This document shows, in pieces, positions 412 through 17,183 of a stretch of 17,915 bases of DNA. This stretch comes from a virus. Lineage: Duplodnaviria > Heunggongvirae > Uroviricota > Caudoviricetes. A program made the translations under genes and the position numbers. The first letter of the stretch is position 1; every line of letters starts with the position of its first letter. The notes under the pieces were generated by a model. It did no database searches. It saw only the letters and a list, made by a program, of their open reading frames with translations, and was not told where the DNA came from. The stretch lies in IMG/VR virus record IMGVR_UViG_2703718843_000008; one strand, 5' to 3'.

Positions 412-537
412 ATGTCTGCACCTGCACTGCCTGATGTCAGAACAGTATTTTGATGAATTGCCAAGGTTACAATGGCACAAATACGGCACAGGAGGAAACG
501 TGGTGTATTTAAATATGGGGTAACTCTTTGATTTTAA

Positions 538-554
538 TGGTGCCGATAATAGGA
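538..554. repeat. Distal att core: 17-bp direct repeat TGGTGCCGATAATAGGA, identical to 12161..12177 (18 bp identical if 537/12160 is included)
   Basis: Exact repeat seen at both ends of the satellite. The sequence is the reverse complement of the tRNA 3' end (TCCTATTATCGGCACCA). Confidence 0.65.
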
Positions 555-671
555 ATAAAATAAAACGATAACACACTGAAAAATATACAAAAAAGAAACA
601 CACCGTTAAGTAATGCCCCCGAAAATGCCCCCATAATAGATGCCGCAGTAAGTCGACTTGTCCCAAGGACT

Positions 672-714
672 GGTAAGTAATGTCAATAGCGGGAACAAAG
701 AGACATTACTTACC
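672..714. repeat. Perfect 13-bp inverted repeat (GGTAAGTAATGTC / GACATTACTTACC), 17-nt spacer, just downstream of the PRTase gene stop
   Basis: Seen directly. No U-tract follows on either strand, so it is not a canonical intrinsic terminator. Confidence 0.4.
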
Positions 715-734
715 GAGAATGGAATCCATTTAGG

Positions 735-1961
735 TTATGCTGGCCAATCCCACTGCTGATAGGCAGAGAATAGGCGCGTGAGCTCAGCAGGCGCAAGAAT
801 ATCAACAATATTAGCTCTGTAGCTATGCGATTTACCTAATGGAACATTTTCGAAATGATTAGCTTGATAAGGATTAAAATCGTGAAGCTCACCTAATGTT
901 GAGATATCGGTATTAATAGTTTTAAGCCAAGAAACAAGAATTACTTTTGCCCCTGTTCTCTGTATGTAAGCTCTTGCCGATTCAAAACTATAGCCTCGCG
1001 TTGTTATATCATCTATAAGAAGTACTGTTTTACCAGGGCCTAAAGGTGGTTTTTTATAGGTAGTTCTAGGATTTCTGTGTGGCTTAGAATTAAGACAAAT
1101 TGTATTAAGTTGATTGCAATGGTCAATTGCAACTCCCTCATTTCTTGCTTTTTGAGATTTTTTGGAAGTCGTATGCCTTAAAATAAGATCTGGGATATAC
1201 GTCTTGCGAAAACATTTTCCAAATATTGAAATCGCTTCATCCATGATATTATTCCCATATCCTTGCTTATGCCCTGGATAAACACTAACATAATTAATCA
1301 TCTTATGAATGCCACTAAAATAGAGACTGGATATTAAGGCACTCGTCCAAAATTCAGGATGGCCTAATCCATGTTTAGCAGCACGAGCATCTTCAGAGTA
1401 AAGAGTATACTCTTCCTTCATGGTGCTGAAAGGAGCAAGTGCATAGAAATTAAAATCACCATCGTGAATTTCATGACACCAAAGATGCTCTCTTAAACAG
1501 AAGGTATCTATAAATCTAGCAATATCTTTAGGGGTTGAAAACTCGAAACCATAATCTGTTTTGTCTGCCCACCATGTAGCTCTTAAAAAGAGCAACTCAC
1601 CATTAACTGCTGTTTGCATGTCGTTTATCGAAGCACCAATGTACAAAGTTTCTGTACTTTCCCAACCCATCAAATCAAGGACATATTTTGTAGCATCCGC
1701 AGTTGGCTTCCCTGGAATGCTCTTATCTTTCGCTCGACAAAGATATTTAAATTCTCCCCAATGCTTTTGTAACACATCCTCTAAAGGGGTTCTTTCATCT
1801 CCGACAACCCACCCCCTGTTAGTGAATACAACAAACTCGATCTTTTTAGTTCTGAAATATCTAATTAATTTATCTACCTCTGCAAAGATTTCGCTATCGA
1901 TCTTTCCCTTAGGCACAAGAATATCTTCAACACTAAGAATCACACCCTTAATTTTGCTCAT
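735..1961 (-). CDS. Two-domain protein: N-terminal HAD-like domain with non-canonical motif I, C-terminal type I phosphoribosyltransferase (PRTase) domain; candidate defense effector
   Basis: 408-aa ORF, ATG preceded by AAGGAAGA. C-terminal PRPP-binding signature GKTVLLIDDITTRGYS. N-terminal HAD-like motifs (FVVFTNRGW; GKP; IGASINDMQTA) but the usual DxD nucleophile position reads SVEDIL. AT-rich. Confidence 0.85.
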   Translation of the reverse strand: MSKIKGVILSVEDILVPKGKIDSEIFAEVDKLIRYFRTKKIEFVVFTNRGWVVGDERTPLEDVLQKHWGEFKYLCRAKDKSIPGKPTADATKYVLDLMGWESTETLYIGASINDMQTAVNGELLFLRATWWADKTDYGFEFSTPKDIARFIDTFCLREHLWCHEIHDGDFNFYALAPFSTMKEEYTLYSEDARAAKHGLGHPEFWTSALISSLYFSGIHKMINYVSVYPGHKQGYGNNIMDEAISIFGKCFRKTYIPDLILRHTTSKKSQKARNEGVAIDHCNQLNTICLNSKPHRNPRTTYKKPPLGPGKTVLLIDDITTRGYSFESARAYIQRTGAKVILVSWLKTINTDISTLGELHDFNPYQANHFENVPLGKSHSYRANIVDILAPAELTRLFSAYQQWDWPA

Positions 1962-1971
1962 TTCATCTTCC

Positions 1972-3036
1972 TTAGAGATCTAAGCTCTGCTGTATCGGCT
2001 GTGCTTTTAAATCATGATTATTATTCAAAATATAATTACTCATCTCATTCAATTCAAAAGGCATTAAAAAAGATAAAGAATTTCTATTTTCTTCAGCAAA
2101 CTTCAATTCTGGTCTACTTTCATACGTAGTAGGAAGATATGGACTCGCTATCTTTTTTGCATACTTAAAAGCATAATCAACAGTATGTGATGTTCCACTT
2201 TTAATATTCCATTCGACTGGTATTAGTGAATCACATAAAGCAGCCTGGATTCTGTTGCGCCTTACAAAATTTTCTGCGCTATATGTTTGTTCAGGTAGAT
2301 ACTCGGTAACGATAGCCCCACCATTAGAAACTATTGCTCGATATAACTCTTTAGAACCTTTCGGATACTCGACAAAAATCCCATTACCCAATACCGCAAT
2401 AGTTGGAATGCCATATCTCAGCGATTCATAATGACAACATTGATCTATTCCTGTCGCCAAACCACTGACTGTTGAAACATCTTTAGAATATAGAGAAGAA
2501 ACAATCAGTTTTACTAGAAAAATACCATCATCCGTTGGCTTTCGTGTCCCCACAATTGCAACAGATTTCTTATTAAGAAGTTCATAATTACCATGAACAA
2601 AAATCCAAAATGGCGGATCGCTTATGTTCTTTAATGATTGAGGAAATGTAGCCTGATCATAAAAGGTGAGCACAATACCATTTTTATTGAGTTCACGAGC
2701 TCTCTCCAGTCCCTTAGACCAAAGGTCTTGTTGAAATGTTTCCCAAGATATATTTTTAGGCAAGGAAACTCTTAGATATCCTGCCAAGGCATCAGCTGTA
2801 TTATCTTTTAATATATTCTTAAATCCAATTTTGGATTGATAGATTTTGCGAAGCGTCCAGTAACCAACCCCCTTTAGACAAGTTAAGGCAAGAAACGCAA
2901 TAATTTCATTTTTCCAAAACTCTCTAACTTCAGTGTAATCTTTATATTCCATTTTACGTTTGCCTTTTAGATTACAACCCGTACTCAACACAAAAAATTT
3001 AGAAAATTGTTGCCAAAAGCATATTATAAATAGCAT
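1972..3036 (-). CDS. DprA/Smf-like (SLOG superfamily) protein; candidate defense partner of the PRTase protein
   Basis: Rossmann-like DprA signature VAIVGTRKPTDDG ... SGLATGIDQCCH ... TIAVLGNG ... YP ... RRNRIQAAL. Stop codon lies 10 nt before the PRTase ATG, so the two are co-transcribed. True start may be the internal ATG at 2952 (MEYKDY...); the first 28 codons are AT-rich and include a TATAAT. Confidence 0.8.
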   Translation of the reverse strand: MLFIICFWQQFSKFFVLSTGCNLKGKRKMEYKDYTEVREFWKNEIIAFLALTCLKGVGYWTLRKIYQSKIGFKNILKDNTADALAGYLRVSLPKNISWETFQQDLWSKGLERARELNKNGIVLTFYDQATFPQSLKNISDPPFWIFVHGNYELLNKKSVAIVGTRKPTDDGIFLVKLIVSSLYSKDVSTVSGLATGIDQCCHYESLRYGIPTIAVLGNGIFVEYPKGSKELYRAIVSNGGAIVTEYLPEQTYSAENFVRRNRIQAALCDSLIPVEWNIKSGTSHTVDYAFKYAKKIASPYLPTTYESRPELKFAEENRNSLSFLMPFELNEMSNYILNNNHDLKAQPIQQSLDL

Positions 3037-3317
3037 CTTACCGCAGATTTGTGAAGCAACAACATCCCTAGGAGAAACCTTAACCTAGCGGGATAACTTA
3101 CTGACCAATCCTCAGCTAGCTCATTGAATTGCCCCCATATCGCACAGCCCCGCACGCCTGCCCGCTTCGCTTAACAGACTGGTTTTCATGCACCTCATAA
3201 ATCGTCTCAGAAGCCACCAAACAAGGGCTTTCTCGTCAAAAATGGTGCATAAGACTCATGCGTTTTCATGCGCCATAGACATGCACTCATGCGCTCTCAG
3301 GCCAGCCAGGGAAAAGG

Positions 3318-3346
3318 TGTTAAAAATCCCGGTACTCGACCGGGAT
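3318..3346 (-). terminator. Intrinsic terminator of the late (sid-psu-ogr) operon
   Basis: On the minus strand, stem AATCCCGGT / ACCGGGATT with 5-nt loop, followed by TTTTAA; about 20 nt downstream of the ogr-like stop. Confidence 0.55.
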
Positions 3347-3366
3347 TACGTGAGAGTTTTTTCTAA

Positions 3367-3639
3367 TCAGACAGGAATCTGCTGACGGCTTGACAGTTTT
3401 GACGCGGAGCCATAGCGATTGAGCGTTTGCTGTTGTTTTACCAGGGTTTGTGATTTGTCTGGTTCCTGTTCATTGCGCCGGGGTTTCATGATTATCTTAT
3501 CCACACTCTCCAGTGCCGTAAATGTGCAGGAACATTCCAGATTCTGGCACTGATACCACGAGCGTTTAACTGACGGAGCTTCATAGGCTGCTGTTCTGGC
3601 GTGTGCAACTGTACCGCATTCCGGACATTTAAGTGCCAT
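3367..3639 (-). CDS. ogr: Ogr/Delta-family zinc-finger late transcription activator
   Basis: MALKCPECGTVAHARTAAYEAPSVKRSWYQCQNLECSCTFTALESV matches the P2 Ogr / P4 Delta C-x2-C ... C-x4-C pattern. ATG at 3639 is preceded by AGGAG; the ORF-track start at 3648 is a GTG. Confidence 0.85.
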   Translation of the reverse strand: MALKCPECGTVAHARTAAYEAPSVKRSWYQCQNLECSCTFTALESVDKIIMKPRRNEQEPDKSQTLVKQQQTLNRYGSASKLSSRQQIPV

Positions 3640-3644
3640 TAATA

Positions 3645-4196
3645 TCACTCCTGTATATCGTTAATGTCATTCAGGCGTTGCTGAAAACGCAGATGTTGTG
3701 CCGGAGTGTAAGAGCCCTGGCAATCACGAATCATACTGGGGTCAGGCATCAAACCGGATTCATCCAGGATCTCACGATAATCCCCGGCAATTTCAGGCGG
3801 TGTTATTGCCAGCTGGCGAACCAGAGCACTGCGTAATATACGAAACGCAACGTCAACCCCTCCGCGTCCCTTCAGGAACGGAGCCAGTGCAGATGTCAGG
3901 GCTGCCCCATTCGCCTGCATAAAATTGCTGAGAGCGGCTTCTGTGCAGGCCTCCATCAATAAATGCTGCGAGTAAATGCATTCGCGCGCAGCACAGTTAA
4001 TTTGCCATTTCAGCACATCCAGACGTTCCCGCAGTAATTCGAGCTGTCGGGCATAATCTGCTGGTTTTTCTGTGGCAGTGAGGAGAGATGCTATCTGTTG
4101 TTCAACGGCTTTTCGGCTCTCACTATGTCCGGCCCACAGAATACGGGCATTCCGAAAACTGGTAAGTGCCTGGTCAGGTGTGCCTCGGGCCGTCAT
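3645..4196 (-). CDS. psu: Psu-like polarity suppression protein (P4 family)
   Basis: 183 aa. Segments LKWQINCAA ... FMQANGAALTSALAPFLKG ... YTPAQ resemble P4 Psu as I recall it. ATGA overlap with the upstream gene; AAGGAG RBS. Confidence 0.7.
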   Translation of the reverse strand: MTARGTPDQALTSFRNARILWAGHSESRKAVEQQIASLLTATEKPADYARQLELLRERLDVLKWQINCAARECIYSQHLLMEACTEAALSNFMQANGAALTSALAPFLKGRGGVDVAFRILRSALVRQLAITPPEIAGDYREILDESGLMPDPSMIRDCQGSYTPAQHLRFQQRLNDINDIQE

Positions 4197-4936
4197 ACTG
4201 CTTTCTCCTTCTCAGCAAGTTCCTGACGAACCTTTATTTTATGCATAGCTGCCGGAGAGAGTTGATTACTGAAATCCAGACGCGCCGCATAATCCGGGGC
4301 AACTCCCGCCAGTTTAAACACCGGGTCCTGTTCAGGCATCGCATCGTTAGCCAGAGCCGGTCTGGTGATATGTTTATGAATAAAGTCTTTCAGCACTGTG
4401 TCCGGGTCATTAACTGAATTCACCACACCCACAACGGCACTGGCTTCCCGGCCCATTGTGGATTTAAGCAGGCTCAGCGTCTGAATAAGCGCTTTTCCAT
4501 GCGACTGCATAAAATCCTCCCAGATTTGTTTTGCGCGAATATCCACAAGAATGTTATGCGCGTGGATATACTTTCCGGCTAATTCCGCAGCTTTCTGCGG
4601 CAAAAGTGCATTTTCGCTTTCCTGAGCCGCCAGCAGCTCATCAAAATCCTCAAGCGTTTCTCGTCCCAGCGCAATTTCCGTGCGCAGTTTTTTCATTTCC
4701 TTTGAGACCACGCCCTGACTTTCACGAAACAGCGTGCGCCACTCCTCATTCAGTGTATTCGTCGTGGATTCCATTTCAGCGCGGCGCTGGCGGATTGTCG
4801 CAATATTATCCGCTGCCGCTTTCTGCTGACGACGTGCTTCAAGCCATGCGTTTCTGGCTGTGTTCATGGTTTCCAGTGCCCGCTGCGTTACAGCCGGAAA
4901 AGTGGAAAGGTTGTTATTCACTGCGGTGTTGTTCAT
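4193..4936 (-). CDS. sid: Sid-like capsid size determination (external scaffold) protein, putative
   Basis: 247-aa helical, Gln/Glu/Ala-rich protein directly upstream of psu and ogr. Assignment rests on size and position, not a specific motif. Confidence 0.45.
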   Translation of the reverse strand: MNNTAVNNNLSTFPAVTQRALETMNTARNAWLEARRQQKAAADNIATIRQRRAEMESTTNTLNEEWRTLFRESQGVVSKEMKKLRTEIALGRETLEDFDELLAAQESENALLPQKAAELAGKYIHAHNILVDIRAKQIWEDFMQSHGKALIQTLSLLKSTMGREASAVVGVVNSVNDPDTVLKDFIHKHITRPALANDAMPEQDPVFKLAGVAPDYAARLDFSNQLSPAAMHKIKVRQELAEKEKAV

Positions 4937-5114
4937 GACTTCTCCTGTCGGGTTGGTTCGTTACGTCAATTGTGTCGTGGCTGACACAAGCACACTATCG
5001 GTGCTCAGTGTGTGGTGGCTGGCACAACGGGCGCTTGCGGTTATTCAGACGTGGCTATGAAAGCCAGCCAGATAAAAATGCCCACTGTTTCAGTCTGCTT
5101 TATGTCCCTGATGC

Positions 5115-5311
5115 GGTGGAACAGGTGAAACATGTGTTACAGCTTTGTTTTATAAATCATTTATATACACTGCACCGGTGGAACATCGCGGGTAACAAGG
5201 TGGAACAGCGGATTGGCTGGCGTTACATCTGTTCCACCTCACTATTTCAGAAGGTGGAACAGGTTCAGCCCCTGTAAAATACGGTTGTTCCACCTGTTTC
5301 ACCTGTTACCC
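5115..5311. repeat. Iteron cluster with AT-rich tract; putative satellite replication origin / cis replication region
   Basis: At least 7 copies of GGTGGAACA / TGTTCCACC in both orientations (5115, 5177, 5199, 5230, 5253, 5286), plus GGTGAAACA / TGTTTCACC variants and an AT-rich stretch at about 5137..5170, immediately downstream of the primase-helicase gene. Confidence 0.6.
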
Positions 5312-5337
5312 TTAATAAATAAGACTCACGCAAAGCC

Positions 5338-8010
5338 TTAACCCGGCACCTCGCTGTTGAAGACATAGAGCCTGCGGGGATTCATCTCTGGCGGGCGAAT
5401 GGTTGTCTGGAGTTTGCCATCAGTGGAGGGCAGCAGGTATCCACGATCTGCGCACAGACGCGCCACCTTGCGCGGGTCAAATCCCCTGCAGATTTCTTTC
5501 CAGCCGGACGGCATGACATAAAACGTAGTGACAGCTTCCGTGCCCTGCGCGGTACTGCCTTTCTCCACCCTGCGCCAGCCCACCATATTGGCGGGACGGT
5601 TGCGCTCGTCATACCAGTCTGCAAAGCGGCTGTACTGATTCGCGGTAAAGAAACTGCGAACCTGCTCCAGTGCGGCGATATCTTCCTGATTGGCGGTGTG
5701 CCCGCGCTCTTTCAGCCATGCGTTCAGGCAGACGCGGGTTGCCCGCAATGCTTCACCCTCAGGCCAGCCGGTGATACCCAGACGGGTTGCCAGTTCACCT
5801 GCCATCGCCACCAGTGCAAAGCGGTTCACAGCCCGGCCCACCTGATTGCCTGCATCTTTCGGAGTCAGGGCGGCAGCATATTCCTTCATCAGCGATTTTG
5901 CCTGTGCCGTTAGTCCGTTAAGATCAGCGGTCAGTGCTTTCAGCCACTCCCGGAACGGCGAACCGTAGTAGCAGGACGTGGCCCATTCAAGATGCTCTGC
6001 CAGAGCCTTGCCGCTGTCGAAGCCGTGCAGCTCCTCAAAAACGCCAAACTTCCCGGAATCGCTGGGGATCTGGATCATCCTGACTTCCATCCCGGCAAAA
6101 GTACGCTCACCGGCCTTTGCCGCATGTTCGGTCAGAGATAACTCGCCAGTTGAAAAGAACAACAGGCGCCACTGCTTACGGGTACGCAGTTCACCGTCCG
6201 TACCGGCACGACTCTTGCCCTGACCGTTTGCCAGCATGTAGGCGATATTGCCTGCCTCGCGTCCGTCAACTTCCCGGATCTCATCAAGCATCATGGCGGC
6301 ATCGTTGCGGCGGCTGGCACATCCCTCCAGCGCGTTGCCGGTGGCCCGCCATGTCTGCCAGTAGTCAGGCCCGCCGCAGACGGAGGTTGCCGCTTTCATG
6401 GTGGTGGTCTTACCGTCTGTCGATTCCCCTTTGAGGTGGTAGCCGCCGCCGTCCATACCAACCAGCCGTAACAGTGGTGCAGCAAAGGCCAGGCTGACAG
6501 CAAATGCCACGCGGGAGTTGCCGGTACAGTAGCGGGATACGTTCTCCCGCCATTCCTCTGTTGTGCCCGACACGCGGAAATCACGCCCCTGCACGGAAGT
6601 GGTCTGGAGAATGACACCCTCTGCACCTTCACCGCTGACCTCATCCTGCAGGACGTAAACCTGACCATGCCAGCCAGTACGGCTGACGCAGGTCACGCGA
6701 CGTTCCGGTTTACACAGTGAGATATATTCCATCAGGCGTGCGCGTGCCTCACCGGTGGTGCTGATATAAGACAGCCCGTTAACAAGCAGTACCCGGCGCA
6801 GTTCCTCACCACTGCCGCTCAGCATTTCCATCGGCATCGCCCAGCGGCGACGCTCACCCCACGTATCTTCCCATTCCAGCAGTCGTCCGAAGTTACCGCC
6901 ATCGGCATCGCAGGTGATTGCCGTCACGCGCAGCGGGCTGCATATTTTGACGTTCTGGATCTCCGTCTCACCGTTGCGCTGTACCTGCTTTTCATACCAG
7001 AGATATTCCTGGGTAAGACGGAACCCGTGCGGCAGTTGCGTGCGGCCTTCCCCGCACAGTACCAGACCGTTGCGAAAGGCTTCACGGGCACGGGTAATAC
7101 CGTGCTCCCGATGAAAGTCATTCCAGTCAGCCTTAATCTCTCCTGGTGGCAGCGTCATCCAGCCGCCAACAGCTTTTGCCGCCCGTTCAGCAAAGGCTCT
7201 GCCGGGATTCTCCCCCCCGTCCTGAAAATCGTTATCACCGGCGATGATAATTTTTACCTCAGGCCAGCGTGCCCGCAGCGACTGCGCCACATTGGGCAGG
7301 TTGCCCGCAGATATGGCAGCCACTACGCATCCGGCAGTGAGCTGGCTTACCGTCAGCGCCGTAGCGTAACCTTCGGTAATCACCACCTGTACCGGTGGTT
7401 CAGACGGTAACGGGCTGAGCGACACAAACGCGCCTTTCATCGTGCTGCCGGGCAGTATGCTTTTTTCACCCGTCGGGGCGATAAGCTGTGCACCGGTCAC
7501 GGCTCCGGTGTTGGTCGTGAGTGGTAACAGCAGGGAACCGGCAGGAAAATCCTTACCGCTGATATGCTGCACGCTTCCGGTCAGAGAGGCCGGGTATCCG
7601 GCGAACCCTTTTCCTGCCAGATAGGCACTTTCTCCCGTGTGGCTCTCTTTCATCAGCGTCGCCACGGTAAGGCTCATGTCGCGTTTAGGGGCTTTTTGTC
7701 TGGCAGGCTTAACAGGCAGTTCCTGCACATCCGGCACATTAAGCACCTGCGCCACCTGCTGCGCAGCCTTTCTGACGTTGTAGCCGGTTACGAGCTTAAC
7801 CAGATCCAGACCGTCACCATTGCCACACTGGCTGCAGATCCACGTCCCGCGCCCGTCAAGGTCATCGAGGCGAAAACGATCCTTGCCCCCACATTTCGGG
7901 CAGGGACCGTGCCTGCCGTTTTCAGGTACATCAATACGCAGCATATGCAGAATAACGGGCCATTTCCCCCGCGCGGCGGCTGAAATCTGCGTAACCGTCT
8001 GTATTGTCAT
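5338..8010 (-). CDS. P4 alpha-like replicative primase-helicase
   Basis: 890 aa. N-terminal zinc-binding motif CPKCGG ... CSQCG; Toprim-like VVITEGYATA ... IIIAGDND; P-loop GESTDGKTTT. ATGA overlap with the upstream ORF. Confidence 0.9.
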   Translation of the reverse strand: MTIQTVTQISAAARGKWPVILHMLRIDVPENGRHGPCPKCGGKDRFRLDDLDGRGTWICSQCGNGDGLDLVKLVTGYNVRKAAQQVAQVLNVPDVQELPVKPARQKAPKRDMSLTVATLMKESHTGESAYLAGKGFAGYPASLTGSVQHISGKDFPAGSLLLPLTTNTGAVTGAQLIAPTGEKSILPGSTMKGAFVSLSPLPSEPPVQVVITEGYATALTVSQLTAGCVVAAISAGNLPNVAQSLRARWPEVKIIIAGDNDFQDGGENPGRAFAERAAKAVGGWMTLPPGEIKADWNDFHREHGITRAREAFRNGLVLCGEGRTQLPHGFRLTQEYLWYEKQVQRNGETEIQNVKICSPLRVTAITCDADGGNFGRLLEWEDTWGERRRWAMPMEMLSGSGEELRRVLLVNGLSYISTTGEARARLMEYISLCKPERRVTCVSRTGWHGQVYVLQDEVSGEGAEGVILQTTSVQGRDFRVSGTTEEWRENVSRYCTGNSRVAFAVSLAFAAPLLRLVGMDGGGYHLKGESTDGKTTTMKAATSVCGGPDYWQTWRATGNALEGCASRRNDAAMMLDEIREVDGREAGNIAYMLANGQGKSRAGTDGELRTRKQWRLLFFSTGELSLTEHAAKAGERTFAGMEVRMIQIPSDSGKFGVFEELHGFDSGKALAEHLEWATSCYYGSPFREWLKALTADLNGLTAQAKSLMKEYAAALTPKDAGNQVGRAVNRFALVAMAGELATRLGITGWPEGEALRATRVCLNAWLKERGHTANQEDIAALEQVRSFFTANQYSRFADWYDERNRPANMVGWRRVEKGSTAQGTEAVTTFYVMPSGWKEICRGFDPRKVARLCADRGYLLPSTDGKLQTTIRPPEMNPRRLYVFNSEVPG

Positions 8011-8390
8011 ACTTCCCCCTGATACAACGTCACACCAGTACTGCAGAAGTCATCAAAGGTCGCCGGAAGCGTGCGGTACATCTCCGCCATTACTTCACAG
8101 CCGCGCGCGGTCAGTACCGGCGGCGCGGTCAGCAGTGACGGCTCCAGCATGTCAGTCAGCAGTGCCAGCGCGGCAGCGGCGCCCTGTGCTTCGCCGTACT
8201 CGTTAATCAGTGCGCACTCGATATGCAGCGCAATGGCCATTTCAATACGCTCCACCGTCAGGCTGTGCGGACCATACTGATCACTGCCAGTTTCGTTCAG
8301 CATTTTCTGCCGCCATGCTGAAGCAATAGCCCGCCGGTAAAGCGCGGTTGTCATTTCTGCCGGGAAAATGGAAACCTGCGGCTGGTTCAT
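8007..8390 (-). CDS. Hypothetical satellite early-operon protein
   Basis: 127-aa ORF with strong RBS (GAAGGAGGTG); translationally coupled on both sides by ATGA overlaps. Confidence 0.55.
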   Translation of the reverse strand: MNQPQVSIFPAEMTTALYRRAIASAWRQKMLNETGSDQYGPHSLTVERIEMAIALHIECALINEYGEAQGAAAALALLTDMLEPSLLTAPPVLTARGCEVMAEMYRTLPATFDDFCSTGVTLYQGEV

Positions 8391-8671
8391 CTGGCACCTC
8401 CTTCAATCAGTGCACAGCTGTGCGCAATATCCGTCAAATCTGCCCGCAGGTACTCCATCAGCGCGGCGACACCATGCGCACAGCCAGCGTCCAGTGCTCC
8501 GGCCTGAGACGAGTATTCAGAAAAGAGAAGCTGGAGCATGTCGCAGGCATTTCTTGCGCGGGTCAGCTTTCCGAAACTGTCCTCTGACAACCCATAGGCA
8601 AAAGCACCGGTATTGTGTTTTTCAGGCAAAGTGTGGCCCTGAGCACCGTTGTGCCCGTTTGAAATATTCAT
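8387..8671 (-). CDS. Hypothetical satellite early-operon protein
   Basis: 94-aa ORF, ATG start with ACGGAG RBS, ATGA overlap with the downstream gene. Confidence 0.55.
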   Translation of the reverse strand: MNISNGHNGAQGHTLPEKHNTGAFAYGLSEDSFGKLTRARNACDMLQLLFSEYSSQAGALDAGCAHGVAALMEYLRADLTDIAHSCALIEGGAR

Positions 8672-8702
8672 CGTGGATTACTCCGTTTTCAGCGGTATTT
8701 TG

Positions 8703-9062
8703 TCAGAGAAACTTTGAATAGTGACCGTCGTCAGGCTCAGCAGAACGCCGTATGCTACGCTCCCGCCAGCGGATAAATAGCACAGACGGATGCAGTGTCA
8801 GCGGGCCGGAACCACTACCGCCTGCAGGAGCTGGTGCAGGCTTAAAGAGCGGTACATCAAACAGGCGCGTATACCGCTGTTCAAACCATGCCAGAGGGCA
8901 GGAAGAAAGCTGGTTGTCGCTGTCATGACGTATCAGCACTTCACAGCTGAATTCAGGATTAACCAGCGCCACAGAGGGCGAGGCTTCAATTAATCGGATA
9001 ATCGTGACCGTCCAGCCACGTTCATGCTGCCAGCGTTCGCCGGGGTGCGGATAATTACGCAT
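8703..9062 (-). CDS. Hypothetical satellite early-operon protein
   Basis: ORF-track start at 9092 is a TTG; the ATG at 9062 (MRNYPHPGERW...) is preceded by GGAGGTG and is the likelier start. Confidence 0.5.
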   Translation of the reverse strand: MRNYPHPGERWQHERGWTVTIIRLIEASPSVALVNPEFSCEVLIRHDSDNQLSSCPLAWFEQRYTRLFDVPLFKPAPAPAGGSGSGPLTLHPSVLFIRWRERSIRRSAEPDDGHYSKFL

Positions 9063-9231
9063 GTTCACCTCCGCAGGGAATGCGCCCGGCAAAGCTCAGT
9101 ACATAATCCGGGGCAAGTCTGCGCCGCGCTGACCGCTCGTTATCTGCGGTGATCCTTAACATCACAGGACGGGCATTGCGTTGACTGCGGTTGATCGCCG
9201 CAAATAACCAGGTACACTTCTGTTTAGCCAT
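9055..9231 (-). CDS. Small hypothetical protein (58 aa), first gene of the leftward operon
   Basis: ATG with AAGAGGT RBS; MAKQKCTWLFAAINRSQRNARPVMLRITADNERSARRRLAPDYVLSFAGRIPCGGEHA. Below the 60-aa ORF-track cutoff. Stop overlaps the next gene's start. Confidence 0.4.
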   Translation of the reverse strand: MAKQKCTWLFAAINRSQRNARPVMLRITADNERSARRRLAPDYVLSFAGRIPCGGEHA

Positions 9232-9320
9232 CTTCGTTACCTCTTATAACGGTTGGTTAAATGCCCGATTTGTGTTCCCGCACAATCGGGCATTGCTTTT
9301 ACAAGCGAACTATACTTACA

Positions 9321-9365
9321 ATGGTAATTACCATGTAGTCATCATATTCTAGGGTAATTACCATG
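9321..9365. promoter_or_regulatory. Two palindromic operator-like sites in the divergent promoter region
   Basis: ATGGTAATTACCAT (9321..9334, perfect 14-bp palindrome) and GGTAATTACC (9353..9362). The second overlaps the ATG of the ribbon-helix-helix gene. Confidence 0.5.
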
Positions 9366-9536
9366 TCAACACCACAAGAGAAACGTTCCCCACCATTCCA
9401 AATGCGTCTTACCGACGATTTTAGGTTGCAACTCGAAAAAGAAATGCGCAAAGATGGAGATAGCGCGTTGGCAACTTGGATTAAAAGAATTTTACGTAAA
9501 GAACTACAATCACGCGGGATTGACCCTAAAGGTTAA
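9363..9536 (+). CDS. Arc/Mnt-like ribbon-helix-helix repressor (57 aa)
   Basis: PPFQMRLTDDFRLQLEKEMRKDG-DSALATWIKRILRKEL follows the beta-strand/helix/helix pattern of Arc-type repressors. Divergent from the early operon. Not in the ORF track (under 60 aa). Confidence 0.55.
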   Translation: MSTPQEKRSPPFQMRLTDDFRLQLEKEMRKDGDSALATWIKRILRKELQSRGIDPKG

Positions 9537-9568
9537 TCAGTTAAATATTACTAACTATCAATTAAGGC

Positions 9569-9859
9569 TTAGGGAGTAGGTGATAATCTATTCCCTTTAT
9601 TAATTGCTCTTGCCTTATTTCTCATCCCCTCAAACTGTTGACCTGAGTTTTCTTCAAACCCATCTCGCCACTTATAATAATCAGCAGCGCGCCATCGGGA
9701 CATCCGACCTATTTTTATAGGTTTTGGAAAGCGATTCAGAGAAATCAATCGATAAATCCATTTGTCACTTAATAAACAATCGGAAGTAATAAACTTCATA
9801 TCGATCAGAGAATCCATTGAAGGTCGTTGCAAAGTAGTATTATCATGTTTAGATAACAT
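9569..9859 (-). CDS. AlpA/Vis-family HTH protein (excisionase or regulator)
   Basis: 96 aa; IYRLISLNRFPKPIKIGRMSRWRAADYYKW matches the AlpA-type pattern (FP-P-I-G ... W ... W). GGAG RBS. Confidence 0.75.
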   Translation of the reverse strand: MLSKHDNTTLQRPSMDSLIDMKFITSDCLLSDKWIYRLISLNRFPKPIKIGRMSRWRAADYYKWRDGFEENSGQQFEGMRNKARAINKGNRLSPTP

Positions 9860-9984
9860 TCATCATTCTCCGTTTATCTAAGTCTATTGGCTTCAACACG
9901 GAAAATTAAAACATAGGTTATAAATGAGAAAAATGTGACTAATGAAAAAAATCCAAAATCATTAGTCACAATAATTGTTAACAT

Positions 9985-10809
9985 TTAGTTAAACTTAATG
10001 TTTTTCATGCAACTACGTAGCAAGCTAACAACAGTATCATAGCTCAAAGGTGGTTCTCCGGTCTTAGGCCAGAACTCACTGGCATGTTGAAAAAGATAAT
10101 CAGCTATCGCTGCTGGACTCTCTCTTCTTAGCCTCATATCACGATGATAGAGCGAAATAATAGCCATGAGTATTTCAGTTCGAGGAACAGCATGTTTTTG
10201 TTTTTGCGCCTCAGATTGTGATTTATATTTATTGGCGTTTTTTATCCGTTTTTGTTCGCATAAGACTATATCAATGAATTTTTGAATCTGTACCTTTGTA
10301 ATCCACAAAACCTCAAAAAGATAATAATTTTCTTTTTCATCATAATTTACATAAAGAATTACCTTACAATTTATATTAGGCGTACCCGCCAGTAGAAAAT
10401 GAATAGGCCAGGAATCCGGTTGCCCCTCATGCTTAACTAACAGATCTTTATATTCATAATCAACAGCCCATAAACCGGATATAAAGCATCGAATAAAACC
10501 ATTTTTATCAATTAAATTATTTTCATCAGGGATTCTTATAGAGCTTAAGTCTGACAACATAATATTGCCATTTCTATCTCGTGGTAAATATTTCAGATTA
10601 GATAAGAACTCATCCATTTGACCATCAATCTTCAAACCACATGAAACATCATACTCATCATCATGGAATTCCATGCATAGCTCTACATCTCGTTCTCTGG
10701 CAAACCAGAGTATATCCTTTTCACTACAACCAATTTTTTCTGAAGCTTCATCCAACTGGTAGTAATCTCTGAGCAGAGAATCAGTATTATTAATTTTTAA
10801 AATATTCAT
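9985..10809 (-). CDS. Hypothetical protein, AT-rich orphan cargo gene translationally coupled to the integrase
   Basis: 274-aa ORF whose ATG overlaps the integrase stop (ATGA). Marked AT-rich codon usage; no motif I can recognise. Confidence 0.65.
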   Translation of the reverse strand: MNILKINNTDSLLRDYYQLDEASEKIGCSEKDILWFARERDVELCMEFHDDEYDVSCGLKIDGQMDEFLSNLKYLPRDRNGNIMLSDLSSIRIPDENNLIDKNGFIRCFISGLWAVDYEYKDLLVKHEGQPDSWPIHFLLAGTPNINCKVILYVNYDEKENYYLFEVLWITKVQIQKFIDIVLCEQKRIKNANKYKSQSEAQKQKHAVPRTEILMAIISLYHRDMRLRRESPAAIADYLFQHASEFWPKTGEPPLSYDTVVSLLRSCMKNIKFN

Positions 10810-11996
10810 TTATGAGTACCAATTAGCTCAGATAAATAATTAGCATACCATTGCATCATTTCTCTTCTCCCTTCGAGATATTGGGCATGGTTATAAATTC
10901 CACGAATAGAGTTTTTGTCCGAATGAGCAAGCTGGGTTTCAATCCAAGCGCTGTTAAATCCTTTCTCATGTAGAATTGTACTCATCGTATGCCTGAAACC
11001 ATGTCCCGTAACACGCCCTGCATATCCAATACGTTTAAACACCTGATTGATGCTTGCTTCACTCATAAATTTGCTAGGATCGTTGCGTCCAGGGAACATC
11101 AGCGGGTAGTTCCCAGTTAGTTCTTTCAAACTTTTGAGATGGGATAATGCTTGTTTTGGTAACGGGACAATATGGCTCCTACGCATTTTCATACGTTCTT
11201 TTGGGATCTCCCACACCGCATTATCAAAATCCACCTCTCGCCACTCACCTGCTCGTAGTTCTCCAGTTCGTAGACCTGTCAGGATAAGTAAATGCGCCCC
11301 CAACAATACAATTGGACTTCCTGAATAAGAATTAAGGGCATTAAAGAACTCCGGTAGTTCGTTGGCTTTGAGGAATGGATAGTGGACTGCTTCATGTCCT
11401 TGCATCGCACTGGCAAGATCCGGTGCCGGATTGTAGATTGCCCTACCCGTTACGATGGCATAGCGAAAAACTTCACCGCATCGCTGACGGACTTTCTTCG
11501 CTTTCTCCATAGCGCCTCGAGCTTCTATCAACCTCAGAACTTCAAGCAGTTCAAGGGGCTGAATATCAGCTATAGGTCTGTGCCCAATATGCGGAAAAAT
11601 GTCTTTCTCAAATGCCTCAATGATGTCGGAAGCATAGCCCTCAGACCATTTGGATGATTTCATTTTGTGCCACTCTAACGCCACTTCTCTGAATGGGTTA
11701 AGTGTCTCAATCGCTGCGTTTAAAGCCTGCTTTTTGGCTTTTTTGACTTCGCCGGGATCTTCACCTGCTGCGAGTAGTTTCTTTGCGTCTTCTCGTTTTT
11801 GTCTGGCATCAGCAAGTGTGACTGTTGGATAAACACCAAAGGACAATCGTTTCTCTTTACCAGCAAAACGGTATTTCATACGCCAGTAACGCGAGCCATT
11901 AGGTTCGACCTGAAGGTATAGGCCACCTCCATCAAACAGCTTATAGCTCTTCTCTTTTCCTTTCGCAGCTTCAACCTTGCGGGCATTCAGCATCAT
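10806..11996 (-). CDS. int: P4-type tyrosine integrase
   Basis: N-terminus KSYKLFDGGGLYLQVEPNGSRYWRMKYRFAGKEKRLSFGVYP is typical of P4-family integrases; C-terminal catalytic residues HGFRHT ... Y. ORF-track start at 12065 is a TTG; ATG at 11996 or 11993 (MMLNARKVE) fits the family N-terminus better. Confidence 0.9.
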   Translation of the reverse strand: MMLNARKVEAAKGKEKSYKLFDGGGLYLQVEPNGSRYWRMKYRFAGKEKRLSFGVYPTVTLADARQKREDAKKLLAAGEDPGEVKKAKKQALNAAIETLNPFREVALEWHKMKSSKWSEGYASDIIEAFEKDIFPHIGHRPIADIQPLELLEVLRLIEARGAMEKAKKVRQRCGEVFRYAIVTGRAIYNPAPDLASAMQGHEAVHYPFLKANELPEFFNALNSYSGSPIVLLGAHLLILTGLRTGELRAGEWREVDFDNAVWEIPKERMKMRRSHIVPLPKQALSHLKSLKELTGNYPLMFPGRNDPSKFMSEASINQVFKRIGYAGRVTGHGFRHTMSTILHEKGFNSAWIETQLAHSDKNSIRGIYNHAQYLEGRREMMQWYANYLSELIGTHK

Positions 11997-12160
11997 TGGG
12001 GGCACATTTCCTAGACCGAACAGAACATGCCCCTGATTGTGCCCCCAACCGCGTGTTGATTTCAAGAGACAAGGGTTGACCTCAAACGTATGAAAACAAC
12101 GTAATATATATGTTTTTAAATGATTTTGTTGATGTGGGTTGACTTGGGAAAACTAGGTGA

Positions 12161-12209
12161 TGGTGCCGATAATAGGAGTCGAACCTACGACCTTCGCATT
12201 ACGAATGCG
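12161..12209 (-). pseudogene. ptwF: Partial tRNA-Thr(CGU) gene, 3' 49 nt only (thrW-like att remnant)
   Basis: Minus strand reads CGCATTCGTAATGCGAAGGTCGTAGGTTCGACTCCTATTATCGGCACCA: anticodon stem-loop with CGT anticodon, T-arm (GGTTCGACTCC), acceptor 3' strand and CCA. No D-arm or 5' acceptor strand upstream. The symbol is my recollection of the K-12 name. Confidence 0.75.
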
Positions 12210-12318
12210 ATGTTAATGCATTTTTAACTACTTGAGCAATCAATCAAAACAACATACTTTATATTATAAAACACCAAGTTATAGCAATAAACCCGTTGAT
12301 TGAAATTAACAAAAGTTG

Positions 12319-13719
12319 ATGTTTATTCCCTCCATTTACTTACACCAGCAGTTACATTATTGTAAGACAGCAATTCTCAACTGGAGCCGAAAAATGGCGC
12401 TTTCAAGACAAAAATTTACCTTCGAAAGACTTCGCAGATTCACCTTACCGGAAGGGAAAAAACAAACTTTTCTTTGGGATGCAGATGTAACAACCCTGGC
12501 ATGCCGAGCAACTAGCGGAGCAAAAGCCTTTGTATTCCAAAGCGTATATGCGGGGAAAACCCTTCGCATGACTATTGGCAACATTAACGACTGGAAGATT
12601 GATGATGCGAGAGCCGAGGCAAGACGGTTACAAACATTGATCGATACAGGGATAGATCCACGAATTGCTAAGGCTGTAAAAATCGCAGAAGCAGAATCCC
12701 TGCAGGCAGAATCACGTAAAACAAAAGTGACTTTCTCCGTCGCCTGGGAAGACTATCTTCAAGAATTGAGAACCGGTATCAGTGCAAAAACTAAACGCCC
12801 ATATTCTACTCGATACATTGCCGATCACATTAACTTGTCCAGTCGTGGAGGCGAAAGTAAAAAAAGAGGCCAAGGCCCGACTTCGGCTGGACCATTGGCT
12901 AGTTTGCTCAACCTGCCGTTATCGGAGCTAACCCCAGATTACATAGCAGCGTGGCTGAGTACAGAAAGGCAAAATAGACCTACCGTCACTGCTCACGCTT
13001 ATCGCCTACTACGTGCTTTCATCAAATGGAGTAATTATCAGAAAAAATATCAAGGGATCATTCCTGGCGATCTGGCACAAGATTACAACGTAAGAAAAAT
13101 GGTTCCCGTGTCAGCGAGTAAAGCTGATGATTGCCTGCAAAAGGAACAACTAAAAAGCTGGTTTAGTGCCGTGCGTAGCCTCAATAATCCTATTGCATCG
13201 GCCTATCTCCAAGTACTTTTGCTCACTGGTGCTCGGCGTGAAGAAATTGCGTCGCTTCGCTGGTCAGACGTAGATTTCAAATGGTCAAGCATGCGAATTA
13301 AAGACAAGATCGAAGGTGAACGTATCATCCCTCTCACTCCTTATGTTTCTGAATTGTTAAATGTACTAGCGCAATCCCCAAATTCTGACGTAAATAAGGA
13401 GGGTTGGGTTTTCAGAAGTAACAGTAAAAGTGGCAAAATTATTGAGCCGCGTTCAGCGCACAACAGAGCGTTAGTGCTGGCTGAGTTACCACATATCAGC
13501 CTTCACGGTTTACGTCGTAGTTTTGGTACTTTGGCCGAGTGGGTTGAAGTTCCCACTGGTATTGTTGCTCAAATTATGGGACACAAACCCAGCGCTCTTG
13601 CCGAAAAACACTATCGCCGTCGTCCGTTAGATCTGTTACGAAAATGGCACGAGAAAATTGAGACATGGATCTTAAATGAAGCAGGTATTACCATAAAAAA
13701 CAACGTTGATATGCGTTGA
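12319..13719 (+). CDS. intF: Tyrosine integrase of the neighbouring cryptic prophage
   Basis: Tyrosine recombinase motifs LLLTGARREE ... HGLRRSFGT ... GHKPSALAEKHY. First ATG at 12319 gives 466 aa (ORF-track start 12316 is a TTG). Confidence 0.85.
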   Translation: MFIPSIYLHQQLHYCKTAILNWSRKMALSRQKFTFERLRRFTLPEGKKQTFLWDADVTTLACRATSGAKAFVFQSVYAGKTLRMTIGNINDWKIDDARAEARRLQTLIDTGIDPRIAKAVKIAEAESLQAESRKTKVTFSVAWEDYLQELRTGISAKTKRPYSTRYIADHINLSSRGGESKKRGQGPTSAGPLASLLNLPLSELTPDYIAAWLSTERQNRPTVTAHAYRLLRAFIKWSNYQKKYQGIIPGDLAQDYNVRKMVPVSASKADDCLQKEQLKSWFSAVRSLNNPIASAYLQVLLLTGARREEIASLRWSDVDFKWSSMRIKDKIEGERIIPLTPYVSELLNVLAQSPNSDVNKEGWVFRSNSKSGKIIEPRSAHNRALVLAELPHISLHGLRRSFGTLAEWVEVPTGIVAQIMGHKPSALAEKHYRRRPLDLLRKWHEKIETWILNEAGITIKNNVDMR

Positions 13720-13835
13720 TTCCATTAAAAATCAACATATTACAAAATATCATCAACTATTGATCAAGATAGATTTTCATGTATCGTAATACACAGTTTA
13801 GTCAATGATACAGCAACTACACAGGAGATAAGCCA

Positions 13836-14276
13836 ATGGCAACCCCAGCAACTGTATCCATAGAACCCACTCTGGCAGCTATCAGAGCTCGCTGGTGTAT
13901 TAATTCAAGTAAAACAACTCAATCCTTTAACGATCCTGCGTCCATGGAAGAGGTTGTCGAGTATCTCAAAGGAACATACTCAGCTCTTCGCAAGTCTGTC
14001 GCATGCGCCAAACTGAAAATTTTACATCTTAAACAAAGAATGCAAAATGCTACTAACTTTCTCGCGCGTCTGATGTCATGTAAAAATCAGGCATCCAGAT
14101 CGCATCACAGTACGGCTAAATCAGCTAAAAGTGCCTTATCATCAGATTCAGGTGATGGTAGTGACCCCGACCCCGAGCCCGAAACGTTTCCTTCTGCCTT
14201 CATTACTACCCCTACTAATTCAATAATGCTTAAAGCTTTCTTTGCCAATATCTCAATCACTGAGGTGGCAAAATGA
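13836..14276 (+). CDS. yagN: Hypothetical prophage protein
   Basis: 146-aa ORF, AGGAG RBS, Ser-rich acidic C-terminal region. Symbol from recollected size and context only. Confidence 0.6.
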   Translation: MATPATVSIEPTLAAIRARWCINSSKTTQSFNDPASMEEVVEYLKGTYSALRKSVACAKLKILHLKQRMQNATNFLARLMSCKNQASRSHHSTAKSAKSALSSDSGDGSDPDPEPETFPSAFITTPTNSIMLKAFFANISITEVAK

Positions 14277-14497
14277 GCGCATTCAAACTCCCGGATACAT
14301 CTCAATCACAGCTCATTTCAACAGCTGAGTTAGCTAAAATCATTAGCTACAAATCTCAAACCATTCGTAAATGGCTTTGTCAGGACAAATTGCCTGAGGG
14401 GCTACCTCGCCCAAAACAAATCAATGGCCGCCATTACTGGTTACGTAAAGATGTCCTCGATTTTATAGATACATTTTCTGTACGAGAAAGTCTGTAA
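14273..14497 (+). CDS. Small HTH protein, AlpA/excisionase-like
   Basis: 74 aa, GAGGTGG RBS, start overlaps the upstream stop (ATGA). LISTAELAKIISYKSQTIRKWL ... INGRHYWLRKDVLDFI. Confidence 0.55.
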   Translation: MSAFKLPDTSQSQLISTAELAKIISYKSQTIRKWLCQDKLPEGLPRPKQINGRHYWLRKDVLDFIDTFSVRESL

Positions 14498-14615
14498 TAA
14501 ATTACAGATTTAATTTTATTGATTTATAGCGATGTTGCCCCGAGAAAAATGGGGCAACACTGAGAAATTTCAGATAGTAGTTTTATATTGAGATAACAAA
14601 GAGGTTTCCTTAAAA

Positions 14616-15470
14616 ATGTCTAATAGTGTTACTAATTTTGAGATGAGCAGCGTTCTACCAGGAAAAAAACCTTGTCAAGGCAAAAACAATGAGTCACAGG
14701 TAGTACAGACTACTCCCATAAAAAAACACTCAGTCACGTTCAAAAATCAATCTTCATTAGGAGTAATTGATCATTATGCCAGACTAACAAATAAATCTCA
14801 CTCTTCCGTAATAGCGGAAGTTGTGGATTTGGCTATCCCTATATTAGAAAAATGCAATCGTCATAACTGGTCAATAAATGAAATAAAAAATGACCTGTTA
14901 AAGTTCTCTATAAAAGAAAGCATCAATCGAAGCCGAGGTAAAACAGAAGTAACTCTGGAAGAGTACTGTTCGTTAATCTGGAAAACGAACATCATGAGTC
15001 CATTAAAAATCCCCATTGCAGATTACTTTCAACTGAACGCTAATGATGAATTCATGGGGAAAGATGAAAAAACAGTTATACGTGAAAGGCTATCCTCGCT
15101 AAGGGAAAATTACGATATGGAAAAAGCCATTTACATTTACAATCAAAGACATTTTGATGTAAAGCATCAAAGTGTCTCAGGATATTCAAACATTATTCTT
15201 ATTCATAGAACAACCTTTGAGGGTTATTACTTTGATGCCGGGCAGGCTCTACTCTTGTCAACATCCCAATTGATTATATTCGGGATAAATGAAGTTCTTA
15301 GAAGAAAGGGGATTGTTATGCCTTATCCGGTTGTTTGTTGGATTGATATTTACCATGTCAATGAAATGGTGGTTATGCTGCCAGTGCTCCGCAAAACAGA
15401 TGTTTCCAACCGTGTTAATGTACCGGATGACATCATTATAAACCCATACTCACAAGAGAGCAGAACCTAA
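14616..15470 (+). CDS. yagM: Hypothetical prophage protein
   Basis: 284-aa ORF, AAAGAGG RBS, AT-rich. Symbol from recollected size and context only. Confidence 0.65.
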   Translation: MSNSVTNFEMSSVLPGKKPCQGKNNESQVVQTTPIKKHSVTFKNQSSLGVIDHYARLTNKSHSSVIAEVVDLAIPILEKCNRHNWSINEIKNDLLKFSIKESINRSRGKTEVTLEEYCSLIWKTNIMSPLKIPIADYFQLNANDEFMGKDEKTVIRERLSSLRENYDMEKAIYIYNQRHFDVKHQSVSGYSNIILIHRTTFEGYYFDAGQALLLSTSQLIIFGINEVLRRKGIVMPYPVVCWIDIYHVNEMVVMLPVLRKTDVSNRVNVPDDIIINPYSQESRT

Positions 15471-15496
15471 GAGGTAACAAAGAAGGACAAACAATT

Positions 15497-16195: not shown

Positions 16196-16299
16196 TTCCA
16201 GAAGCTAATTGCAGAGTAACTTTTTAACAGCCATCACAGGCTGGGGCTACCTTCGTCTCAAATTTAGATGTTGGATAGGTATTATATAATGGCATTGTG

Positions 16300-16444
16300 T
16301 ACTCTTACTACCTGTATTCACCAGTAAGAGTAGTAATCAGATCAGTATGTCCGTACTAAAATCTGATACCAGTATATACCGACAACAGTGACCAGGAATA
16401 GCCCTGCCTGTATGGCATCCCTGTACGGTCTGCTATAGACCGTA
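16300..16444. repeat. Structured intergenic region with several inverted repeats and CCTGTA motifs
   Basis: 10-bp IR TACTCTTACT / AGTAAGAGTA (16300..16332); 7-bp IR ATCAGAT / ATCTGAT (16336..16367); hairpin TACGGTCT-gctat-AGACCGTA (16424..16444); CCTGTA(T/C) at 16311, 16407, 16419 and its complement at 16453. Confidence 0.4.
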
Positions 16445-16466
16445 GGACCAAATACAGGTATATATT

Positions 16467-17093: not shown

Positions 17094-17102
17094 GTCGGTA
17101 AT

Positions 17103-17138: not shown

Positions 17139-17183
17139 CAAAAAATTACTAAAATGCAGTTTCGTTACGCAATTTTCTATAGA

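Follow-up and report, generated by a model that had tools for sequence, protein, structure and literature searches.

The stretch of DNA studied here, IMG/VR virus record IMGVR_UViG_2703718843_000008 (17,915 nucleotides, hereafter the window), is part of an Escherichia coli chromosome, and its sequence indicates that positions 537-12177 are in all likelihood a structurally intact, integrated satellite of the P4 family. A first-pass annotation had placed a P4-like satellite at 538-12177, bounded by 18-bp attachment (att) repeats; the exact repeat and an empty site sustain this proposal, except that the start lies one base further left, at 537. All the functional classes that define P4-like satellites were found apart from epsilon/Ash, the AlpA-type regulator by weak matches, and as the element has six of the seven components of the family it is assigned to the 'Type B' P4-like class. 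The family has been catalogued by Moura de Sousa & Rocha 2021 (PMC8628076) and in SatelliteFinder (PMC10085698), its hotspots were described by Rousset et al. 2022 (PMC9122126) and in PMC13586616, and P4-like satellites are reported in almost half of E. coli genomes (PMC8628076).

With P4 (NC_001609) the element shares a tyrosine integrase, GGGGGCAY arm sites and a tRNA 3' end as target; Sid, Psu, Delta, the primase domain of alpha, orf106 (named cnr in PMC8628076) and an Icd/kil-like gene; iterons of the TGTTCACC type; a Psid promoter with two Ogr/Delta boxes at identical spacing; and a P2-family cos with an adjoining defence hotspot, a size of 11.6 kb and the lack of structural genes. As had been stated at first pass, no open reading frame (ORF) of the element matched capsid, tail or terminase families in Pfam, PHROGs or NCBIfam. 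The claim that its ORFs are intact also held. Alignments of Int, alpha, Sid, Psu, Delta and Icd to relatives cover the full proteins at 93-100% identity, the corresponding RefSeq genes in three other genomes have the same lengths, and no ORF appears truncated or frameshifted against relatives.

By analogy with P4 we infer the course of excision, replication, helper dependence and capsid redirection as well as the mechanism of immunity, and the element is predicted to be mobilisable. The P4-type integrase and the AlpA/Vis-like protein would recombine the 18-bp cores and excise a circle of 11,623 bp, which the alpha-like primase-helicase would replicate from the iteron origin. Ogr of a P2-like helper, or the satellite's own Delta, would switch on the Psid-like promoter, after which Sid, as an external scaffold, would make the capsid protein of the helper assemble into a small shell with room for about 11.6 kb. 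Psu would decorate this shell and block Rho, and the helper terminase would cut and package the satellite at the P2-family cos. In the integrated state the cos-adjacent ShosTA genes may protect the host against other phages.

Element ends and integration module

The ends and the integration functions of the element are as follows.

537-554: distal att core, 18 bp, equal to the left element end (exact repeat and K-12 empty site)
613-632, minus strand: two P4-type integrase arm-type sites (GGGGGCAT twice), 59 bp from the core
9569-9859, minus strand: AlpA/Vis-like helix-turn-helix gene, candidate excisionase or regulator (weak matches)
9985-10809, minus strand: orf274, unknown protein, its start overlapping the int stop by 4 bp
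10806-11996, minus strand: P4-type tyrosine integrase gene int (Pfam Arm-DNA-bind_3, Phage_int_M and Phage_integrase)
11998-12046: three arm-type sites (GGGGGCAC, AGGGGCAT, GGGGGCAC) in a P4-like layout, 114 bp from the core
12160-12177: int-proximal att core, 18 bp, inside the pseudo-tRNA ptwF (exact repeat)

A repeat search found ATGGTGCCGATAATAGGA as an exact direct repeat at 537-554 and 12160-12177. Because the bases bordering the two copies differ (536 against 12159 and 555 against 12178), the repeat is exactly 18 bp long, and by a rough estimate about 0.002 repeats of an exact 18-mer are expected by chance in 17.9 kb. The distance from repeat to repeat is 11,623 bp against a P4 length of 11,624 bp, in line with the earlier remark that the spacing is close to the size of P4. 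The repeat corresponds to the 3' end of tRNA-Thr (thrW) on the minus strand, and its right copy runs on as the 3' half of thrW up to 12212. In K-12 MG1655 the left flank, a single 18-mer and ptwF with intF are contiguous, and K-12 therefore holds the base-exact empty site. In strain 2018-02-2CC the same element (99.8% identity over 12.2 kb) is bounded by the same repeat and lies at an intact thrW beside proA, without the cryptic prophage CP4-6 that adjoins it in the window.

The arm-type sites lead to the same conclusion. All four copies of GGGGGCAY in the window, together with one AGGGGCAT, adjoin the att cores, at 59 and 114 bp as against 54 and 113 bp in P4 attP, where the counterparts of the int-proximal group are found at 3915-3965, 113 bp from the P4 core. 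One arm site directly precedes the int start codon in the window element and in P4 alike. The 18-bp repeat is therefore the true att site, as seen from the empty site, the thrW copy, the arm sites and the P4-like spacing; the K-12 empty site and the P4-type arm sites answer the objection that the repeats might be chance matches.

The integrase is 43% identical to P4 Int (E 3e-112), which together with its Pfam domains bears out the first-pass assignment; its open frame reaches 12065 and the RefSeq start is at 11996, giving 396 aa. The Vis/AlpA-like gene named at first pass is present but weak, falling just under the Pfam AlpA cut-off. Its product matches phrog_66 (excisionase) at E 1e-6 and P4 Vis (ORF88) at E 4e-5, and its position corresponds to that of the clear AlpA of strain W60. 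Between orf274 and this gene lies a 12-bp inverted repeat (TGTGACTAATGA ... TCATTAGTCACA, 9933-9970), followed on the minus strand by a U-rich stretch; it may terminate int-orf274 or bind a regulator.

Late, packaging and replication modules

The features of the late and replication modules are listed in minus-strand order.

9055-9231, minus strand: Icd-like (kil-like) cell-division inhibitor, first gene of the left operon (NCBIfam phage_ICD_like, E 5.5e-24)
8703-9092, minus strand: orf129, unknown function (phrog_30862; weak BLASTP match to P4 ORF151, E 0.001)
8387-8671, minus strand: orf94, unknown function, kept in the lineage (phrog_14861, unknown function)
8007-8390, minus strand: DUF5375 protein, homologue of P4 orf106 (Pfam DUF5375; 40% identity to P4 ORF106, E 8e-17)
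5338-8010, minus strand: alpha-like replication protein, 890 aa, zinc-ribbon and TOPRIM primase fused to a DUF927 helicase
5115-5303: predicted replication origin with eight TGTTYCACC iterons in both orientations and an A+T-rich centre, directly downstream of the alpha gene
4971-4988 and 5009-5026, minus strand: Psid-like late promoter region, two Ogr/Delta boxes of the form TGT-N12-ACA (0.01 such 18-mers expected)
4193-4936, minus strand: sid, homologue of the capsid size-determination scaffold, 247 aa (phrog_6165, E 7e-93)
3645-4196, minus strand: psu, polarity suppression and capsid decoration protein (Pfam Psu, E 1.9e-44, full length)
3367-3648, minus strand: delta, single-domain Ogr/Delta zinc-finger late activator (Pfam Ogr_Delta, E 7e-16)
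3321-3347, minus strand: stem-loop and U run after delta (9-bp G+C-rich stem, then UUUUU), likely the late-operon terminator
3140-3194, minus strand: cos region, with the putative cohesive-end segment GGCGTGCGGGGCTGTGCGA at 3158-3140 and the conserved box GGTGCATGAAAACC at 3194-3181

The Sid/Psu/Ogr late module that had been proposed was recovered in the order sid-psu-delta. The Sid homologue is 24% identical to P4 Sid over 226 aa (E 7e-13) and finds P4 Sid as its best PDB sequence match (7jw1_E, E 6.4e-10), Psu is 30% identical to P4 Psu (E 2e-15), and the delta product is 45% identical to the first half of P4 Delta (E 5e-11). The centres of the Psid-like boxes stand 43.5 and 81.5 nt upstream of the sid ATG, and the spacing is identical in P4 Psid, with boxes at 9531-9548 and 9493-9510 and the sid ATG at 9583. 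These P4 boxes are presumably the -55 and -18 Delta sites.

The cos region, read as GGTGCATGAAAACC...GCGGGCA/GGCGTGCGGGGCTGTGCGA, aligns with TGCATTAAAACC...GCGGGCG/GGCGAGGCGGGGAAAGCAC of P4, and both of its boxes recur in the dinI-portal spacer of Peduoviridae phage 500465-1. It is kept in nine sister satellites, whose similarity to the window ends a few bases past the cos core, and the variable hotspot thus begins just past cos. A search of IMG/VR with the exact cos 18-mer returned mostly sister satellites and G+C-rich chance matches and no new helpers. The non-coding stretch next to cos has several GCATG/CATGC motifs, in the window (3182-3300) and in P4 (11497-11545), which may be terminase-binding repeats; a 65-aa ORF that overlaps this stretch (3188-3385, plus strand) is probably no gene.

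The iterons of the origin named at first pass were confirmed, as TGTTYCACC has eight matches in the window, all within 5115-5303, against 0.26 expected; P4 type-1 iterons read TGTTCACC. A second iteron cluster, the counterpart of P4 crr, was sought with one mismatch allowed and none was found. The alpha primase-helicase stood in part: its N-terminal primase is P4-like, with 38% identity to P4 alpha confined to residues 6-316, but the remainder is a DUF927 helicase (Pfam, E 4e-91). The helicase finds two PDB chains, 8tch_A (entered as 'Pathogenicity island protein') and 5dgk_A ('Active helicase'), and, weakly, the NCBIfam cassette-chromosome helicase model Cch1, whereas the helicase part of P4 alpha is D5_N/DUF5906/Pox_D5, not DUF927. 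The Icd-like protein at the head of the operon is 54% identical to the C-terminal part of the P4 'cI' ORF.

Immunity region and defence cargo

The control region lies between the Icd-like gene and the AlpA-like gene.

9369-9341, minus strand: left-operon promoter TTGACA-17-TATGAT, the best sigma-70 match of the region (11/12)
9323-9332 and 9353-9362: two palindromic putative operators GGTAATTACC, exact, 30 bp apart, overlapping the left-operon promoter
9363-9536, plus strand: orf57, 57 aa, probable Arc-like (ribbon-helix-helix) repressor, on the strand opposite to all other element genes
9261-9293: conserved leader stem-loop, flanked by the operators on one side and the icd ribosome-binding site on the other

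The repressor announced at first pass is at best this 57-aa Arc-like protein, which is weakly supported. The protein has 85 homologues, some of them named 'Arc family DNA-binding protein' by NCBI, and 9 of 27 homologues have a weak match to Pfam Arc, but orf57 of the window has none; it has no direct match in Pfam, NCBIfam or the PDB. Its AlphaFold model, a single long helix with a pLDDT of 69, is uninformative, and matches to designed helical repeats were rejected as composition artefacts. Among the relatives we found at least six types of control region, each with a TTGACA -35 box and its own palindrome twice; the twice-repeated operators are, by type, GGTAATTACC, GTGTAATTACAC, GTGGGCCACAC, GGTGCGATTCAC, AGGTACGTACCT and AGGTGGCCACCT. 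The operator and the small gene on the opposite strand (Arc/YlcI-like) vary together in type: relatives with the same operator have an orf57 of 87-98% identity, whereas those with other operators have one of 46-59% identity or a YlcI-like protein. On the grounds of the Arc annotations and matches and of this tracking, immunity would be a protein repressor-operator system, its operators presumably bound by the 57-aa Arc-like protein.

Lysogenic control thus probably differs from that of P4, with operators and an Arc-like protein in place of CI RNA. Rfam gave no C4 or CI RNA match in the window, the CI regions of P4 and O157 could not be aligned with the window leader, and the gap between the icd start and orf57 is 130 nt only. 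The leader does carry a conserved stem-loop, with fold z-scores of -3.4 (sense) and -5.3 (antisense), compensatory changes at six of nine pairs (13 variants) and, in most variants, a T run on the plus strand. A candidate cis-antisense RNA (9226-9310, plus strand), with counterparts in relatives, lies opposite the icd ribosome-binding site, and a conserved promoter-like site TTGATY-16-TAnACT is found within icd codons 5-17. The first stem-loop of this candidate has an anti-Shine-Dalgarno loop, and the G-U pairs of its stem would be A-C mismatches on the sense strand. Next comes a hairpin of 12-16 bp with compensatory changes, after which most variants have a T run on the plus strand only, and the candidate also has a weak Rfam match to SymR, below the threshold. 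The 9226-9310 RNA could also serve as an attenuated leader for orf57 mRNA, in which case the promoters would stand face to face.

These features recall more than one known switch. With the control of icd or kil by P1 c4 or P4 CI RNA the element shares an Icd-like first gene whose ribosome-binding site lies under a structured RNA region, but it has a 57-aa Arc-like repressor candidate and its RNA element is apparently encoded antisense. The immunity switches of P2 and 186 have face-to-face promoters, and the sequence suggests something similar in the window, where the strong early promoter is opposed by a weaker candidate on the complementary strand.

Catalogues of the family speak of 'Ash (also called epsilon)'. 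P4 epsilon is Pfam Derepression, and Pfam Phage_ASH maps to the N-terminal part of the old P4 'cI' ORF, the C-terminus of which is Icd-like; the loci examined were 8168-8584 and 7888-8175 of P4 and 13997-14554 of strain 155. As the two Pfam families are separate and map to different P4 ORFs, the catalogue term appears to merge two different genes. For orf94 of the window, which is kept in the lineage, BLASTP gave no match to P4 epsilon and hhalign a probability of 3%.

The cargo next to cos comprises two genes.

735-1961, minus strand: ShosT, toxin/effector with HAD and phosphoribosyltransferase (PRTase) parts (PADLOC ShosT, E 1.5e-92, full length)
1972-3036, minus strand: ShosA, DprA-like antitoxin/sensor (PADLOC ShosA, E 3.3e-90; Pfam DNA_processg_A, E 3.8e-58)

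ShosT has weak Pfam HAD and PRTase matches and a G+C content of about 0.36, and ShosA has a shorter start in RefSeq (about 326 aa). Together they make up about 2.3 kb of low G+C in the cos-adjacent hotspot, a cargo that had gone unmentioned at first pass, and the allele of the window was found in 10 genomes, always at 99% identity or more. ShosTA has also been published as DprA-PRTase (PMC9122126), where a homologous system, derived from a P2 hotspot, was validated and is reported to protect against T7 and lambda. Satellites of the same architecture have DRT3 (at thrW) or retron St85 (at leuX) in this cargo spot, the int-alpA module of the leuX copy being different. Variable cargo at P4 hotspots has been described (PMC9122126, PMC13586616), and the element has in common with these hotspots a variable low-G+C cargo directly beside cos; in the prophage map, however, the P4 hotspot lies between psu and int and that of the element between cos and the distal att. 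In the P2-like phages Peduovirus P24C9 and Escherichia phage 10W a ShosT homologue is encoded close to the genome ends, but it shares just 38% identity with the satellite protein; this agrees with the published finding that defence genes seldom pass between P2 and P4 hotspots (PMC13586616).

Relatives, alternative readings and chromosomal placement

At least seven further complete E. coli genomes hold near-identical copies of the element (99.6-99.8%), and its core (3100-9900, counted as present at 80% coverage or more) is found in 320 of 5,426. Related elements occupy thrW, ptwF and leuX, and since near-identical copies sit at different att sites with swapped cargo, the lineage appears to have moved recently. 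The order int-alpA-alpha-sid-psu-delta was seen in 16 of the 25 loci with a DUF927-type alpha that were examined; the loci with this order come from Citrobacter, Pantoea, Enterobacter, Yersinia, Pseudocitrobacter and Shigella, and psu is often missing from them. Many DUF927-alpha relatives lack psu (sid-delta only), and several have a second, distant sid-like gene after delta. Relatives in Xenorhabdus and Morganella (alpha about 62% identical) have an Ash-like ORF in place of the Arc-like module, and two of them have a leader that resembles the P4 CI-RNA region; at the thresholds used, sid and delta were not detected in the Xenorhabdus, Morganella and Proteus relatives. Searching 50,697 phage records with the core at the nucleotide level gave no similarity to P4, and tblastn of the Sid-like protein against the same records gave nothing, the homology to P4 being visible only in pairwise protein, profile or PDB searches.

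The element departs from P4 in several respects. In P4 the early and late operons diverge, and int and alpha lie at the two far ends of the prophage, whereas here the order is int-alpA-left operon-alpha-sid-psu-delta-cos-cargo with all modules co-directional. It has one iteron cluster against ori and crr of P4, a DUF927 helicase against D5/Pox_D5, a Delta of a single domain unlike that of P4, an Arc-like gene with operators instead of epsilon, the Ash domain and the CI-RNA region, and att sites at thrW/ptwF against leuX. A relative in strain 155 has the classical P4 order and a late module 92% identical to that of the window element.

Some of these observations, with a few others, weigh against a P4-family satellite. 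The gene order is off the P4 layout, the P4 order or a swap of psu and delta being reported for about 97% of catalogued elements (PMC8628076), and the helicase family is unlike that of P4. The AlpA/Vis-like protein scores 20.6 bits against Pfam AlpA, below the cut-off of 21. The cos site differs from those of P2 and P4 at several positions, its exact core was found in one phage only in the collections searched, and no P2-like helper is visible within the window. Finally, neither epsilon (Pfam Derepression) nor Ash matches any window ORF in Pfam, and helper derepression is thus left unexplained.

These points can be read in other ways. The missing epsilon/Ash homologue, the weak AlpA match, the position in a pseudo-tRNA beside a degraded cryptic prophage and the lack of a helper in view would suit a defective or domesticated P4-like remnant, that is, a fixed ShosTA defence island which has kept its reading frames but no longer undergoes induction, replication or packaging. 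We consider this improbable, as the att cores do not differ and no arm site is missing, the iterons, Psid boxes and cos are intact, no gene is truncated and the size matches P4, and the near-identical copies at different sites with swapped cargo point to recent movement; the layout without epsilon is moreover common to the whole lineage across genera and hence appears to be design rather than decay. The backbone may instead be taken for that of a phage-inducible chromosomal island (PICI), or a P4/PICI hybrid, with int, alpA and the primase/DUF927 gene as its core and a helper other than P2. Gram-negative PICIs indeed have int and a co-directional alpA-like gene next to each other followed by a primase-replicase, the replicase of the element is likewise a primase with a DUF927-type helicase, which resembles 8tch_A and the Cch1 model, and P4-like elements score as Type C PICI in SatelliteFinder (PMC10085698). 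Yet the element, unlike them, has the P4 hijacking genes sid, psu and delta along with Psid boxes and a cos of the P2 family, and the specific resemblance to P4 extends to its Int, its arm sites, the primase domain, orf106 (cnr) and the Icd-like gene. No element ORF matched a PICI family for packaging or capsid redirection (small terminase, Rpp, Ppi, capsid morphogenesis; Pfam, PHROGs, NCBIfam), and a PICI origin is accordingly very unlikely.

A last alternative holds that the 18-bp repeats are leftovers of the integration of CP4-6 at thrW and not the bounds of a satellite, as the right copy lies inside ptwF, the attR fragment of CP4-6. We give it next to no credence: K-12 has CP4-6 and ptwF yet a single 18-mer and no satellite, so the empty site refutes it, the same repeat bounds the element at thrW in a strain that lacks CP4-6, and arm sites flank both copies. 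An intact P4-family satellite thus stays the preferred reading, placed in the chromosome between a LysR-type pseudogene and CP4-6 as listed below.

1-411: left flank, LysR-type pseudogene adjoining paoD
12164-12237, minus strand: tRNA-like pseudogene outside the element (Rfam tRNA, 45.5 bits, mispaired acceptor stem; 100% identity to K-12)
12316-13719, plus strand: intF of CP4-6, outside the element
12316-17915: intF-yagN-yagM-yagL-yagK-yagJ end of the cryptic prophage CP4-6 (100% identity to K-12)

We take the tRNA-like pseudogene to be ptwF of K-12, the attR of CP4-6. ARAGORN called no tRNA in the window, and the right repeat therefore lies in a pseudo-tRNA and not in a live gene; the sole other Rfam match in the window is a weak, sub-threshold one to SymR (E 0.014). 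The 5' half of the ptwF fragment consists of prophage sequence resembling the 5' half of a tRNA, its acceptor stem being broken, and the fragment, itself the attR of one element, has served as target for a second integrating element. The junction of satellite, ptwF and intF was found in one complete genome only (88% identity), hence this placement is rare. Given how common CP4-6 is and that the flanks match K-12 exactly, the most parsimonious account is that the satellite entered ptwF as a secondary site; the structure would also allow the reverse order of events.

Elements of this kind are well known, and near-identical copies are already public. The present one is a cleanly delimited ShosTA-carrying satellite validated by an empty site, and its K-12-like background with the CP4-6 pseudo-tRNA site makes excision and transfer easily testable. 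It is also an example of a sub-lineage that differs from the textbook P4 in layout, helicase and immunity region and that deserves description. We suggest, tentatively and with more doubt than confidence, that it belongs to a distinct and widespread branch of the P4 family that has not been described as such in the literature. This branch would be marked jointly by a co-directional genome with a DUF927 (Cch/SaPI-type) helicase and without epsilon/Ash, by a protein immunity switch with six or more exchangeable specificities, in each of which an Arc/YlcI-like repressor would act on two operators of its own over a strong early promoter, and by a weak promoter inside icd, facing the early one, that would give an antisense RNA of about 75 nt over the icd ribosome-binding site, the repressor mRNA leader or both. 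Its helpers are possibly Wadgaonvirus-type Peduoviridae with the cos GGCGTGCGGGG, exploited by a route other than epsilon and CI RNA. If such a protein-plus-antisense switch is real, it would mean that helper-sensing and immunity modules are exchanged among P4-type hijackers no less freely than defence cargo.

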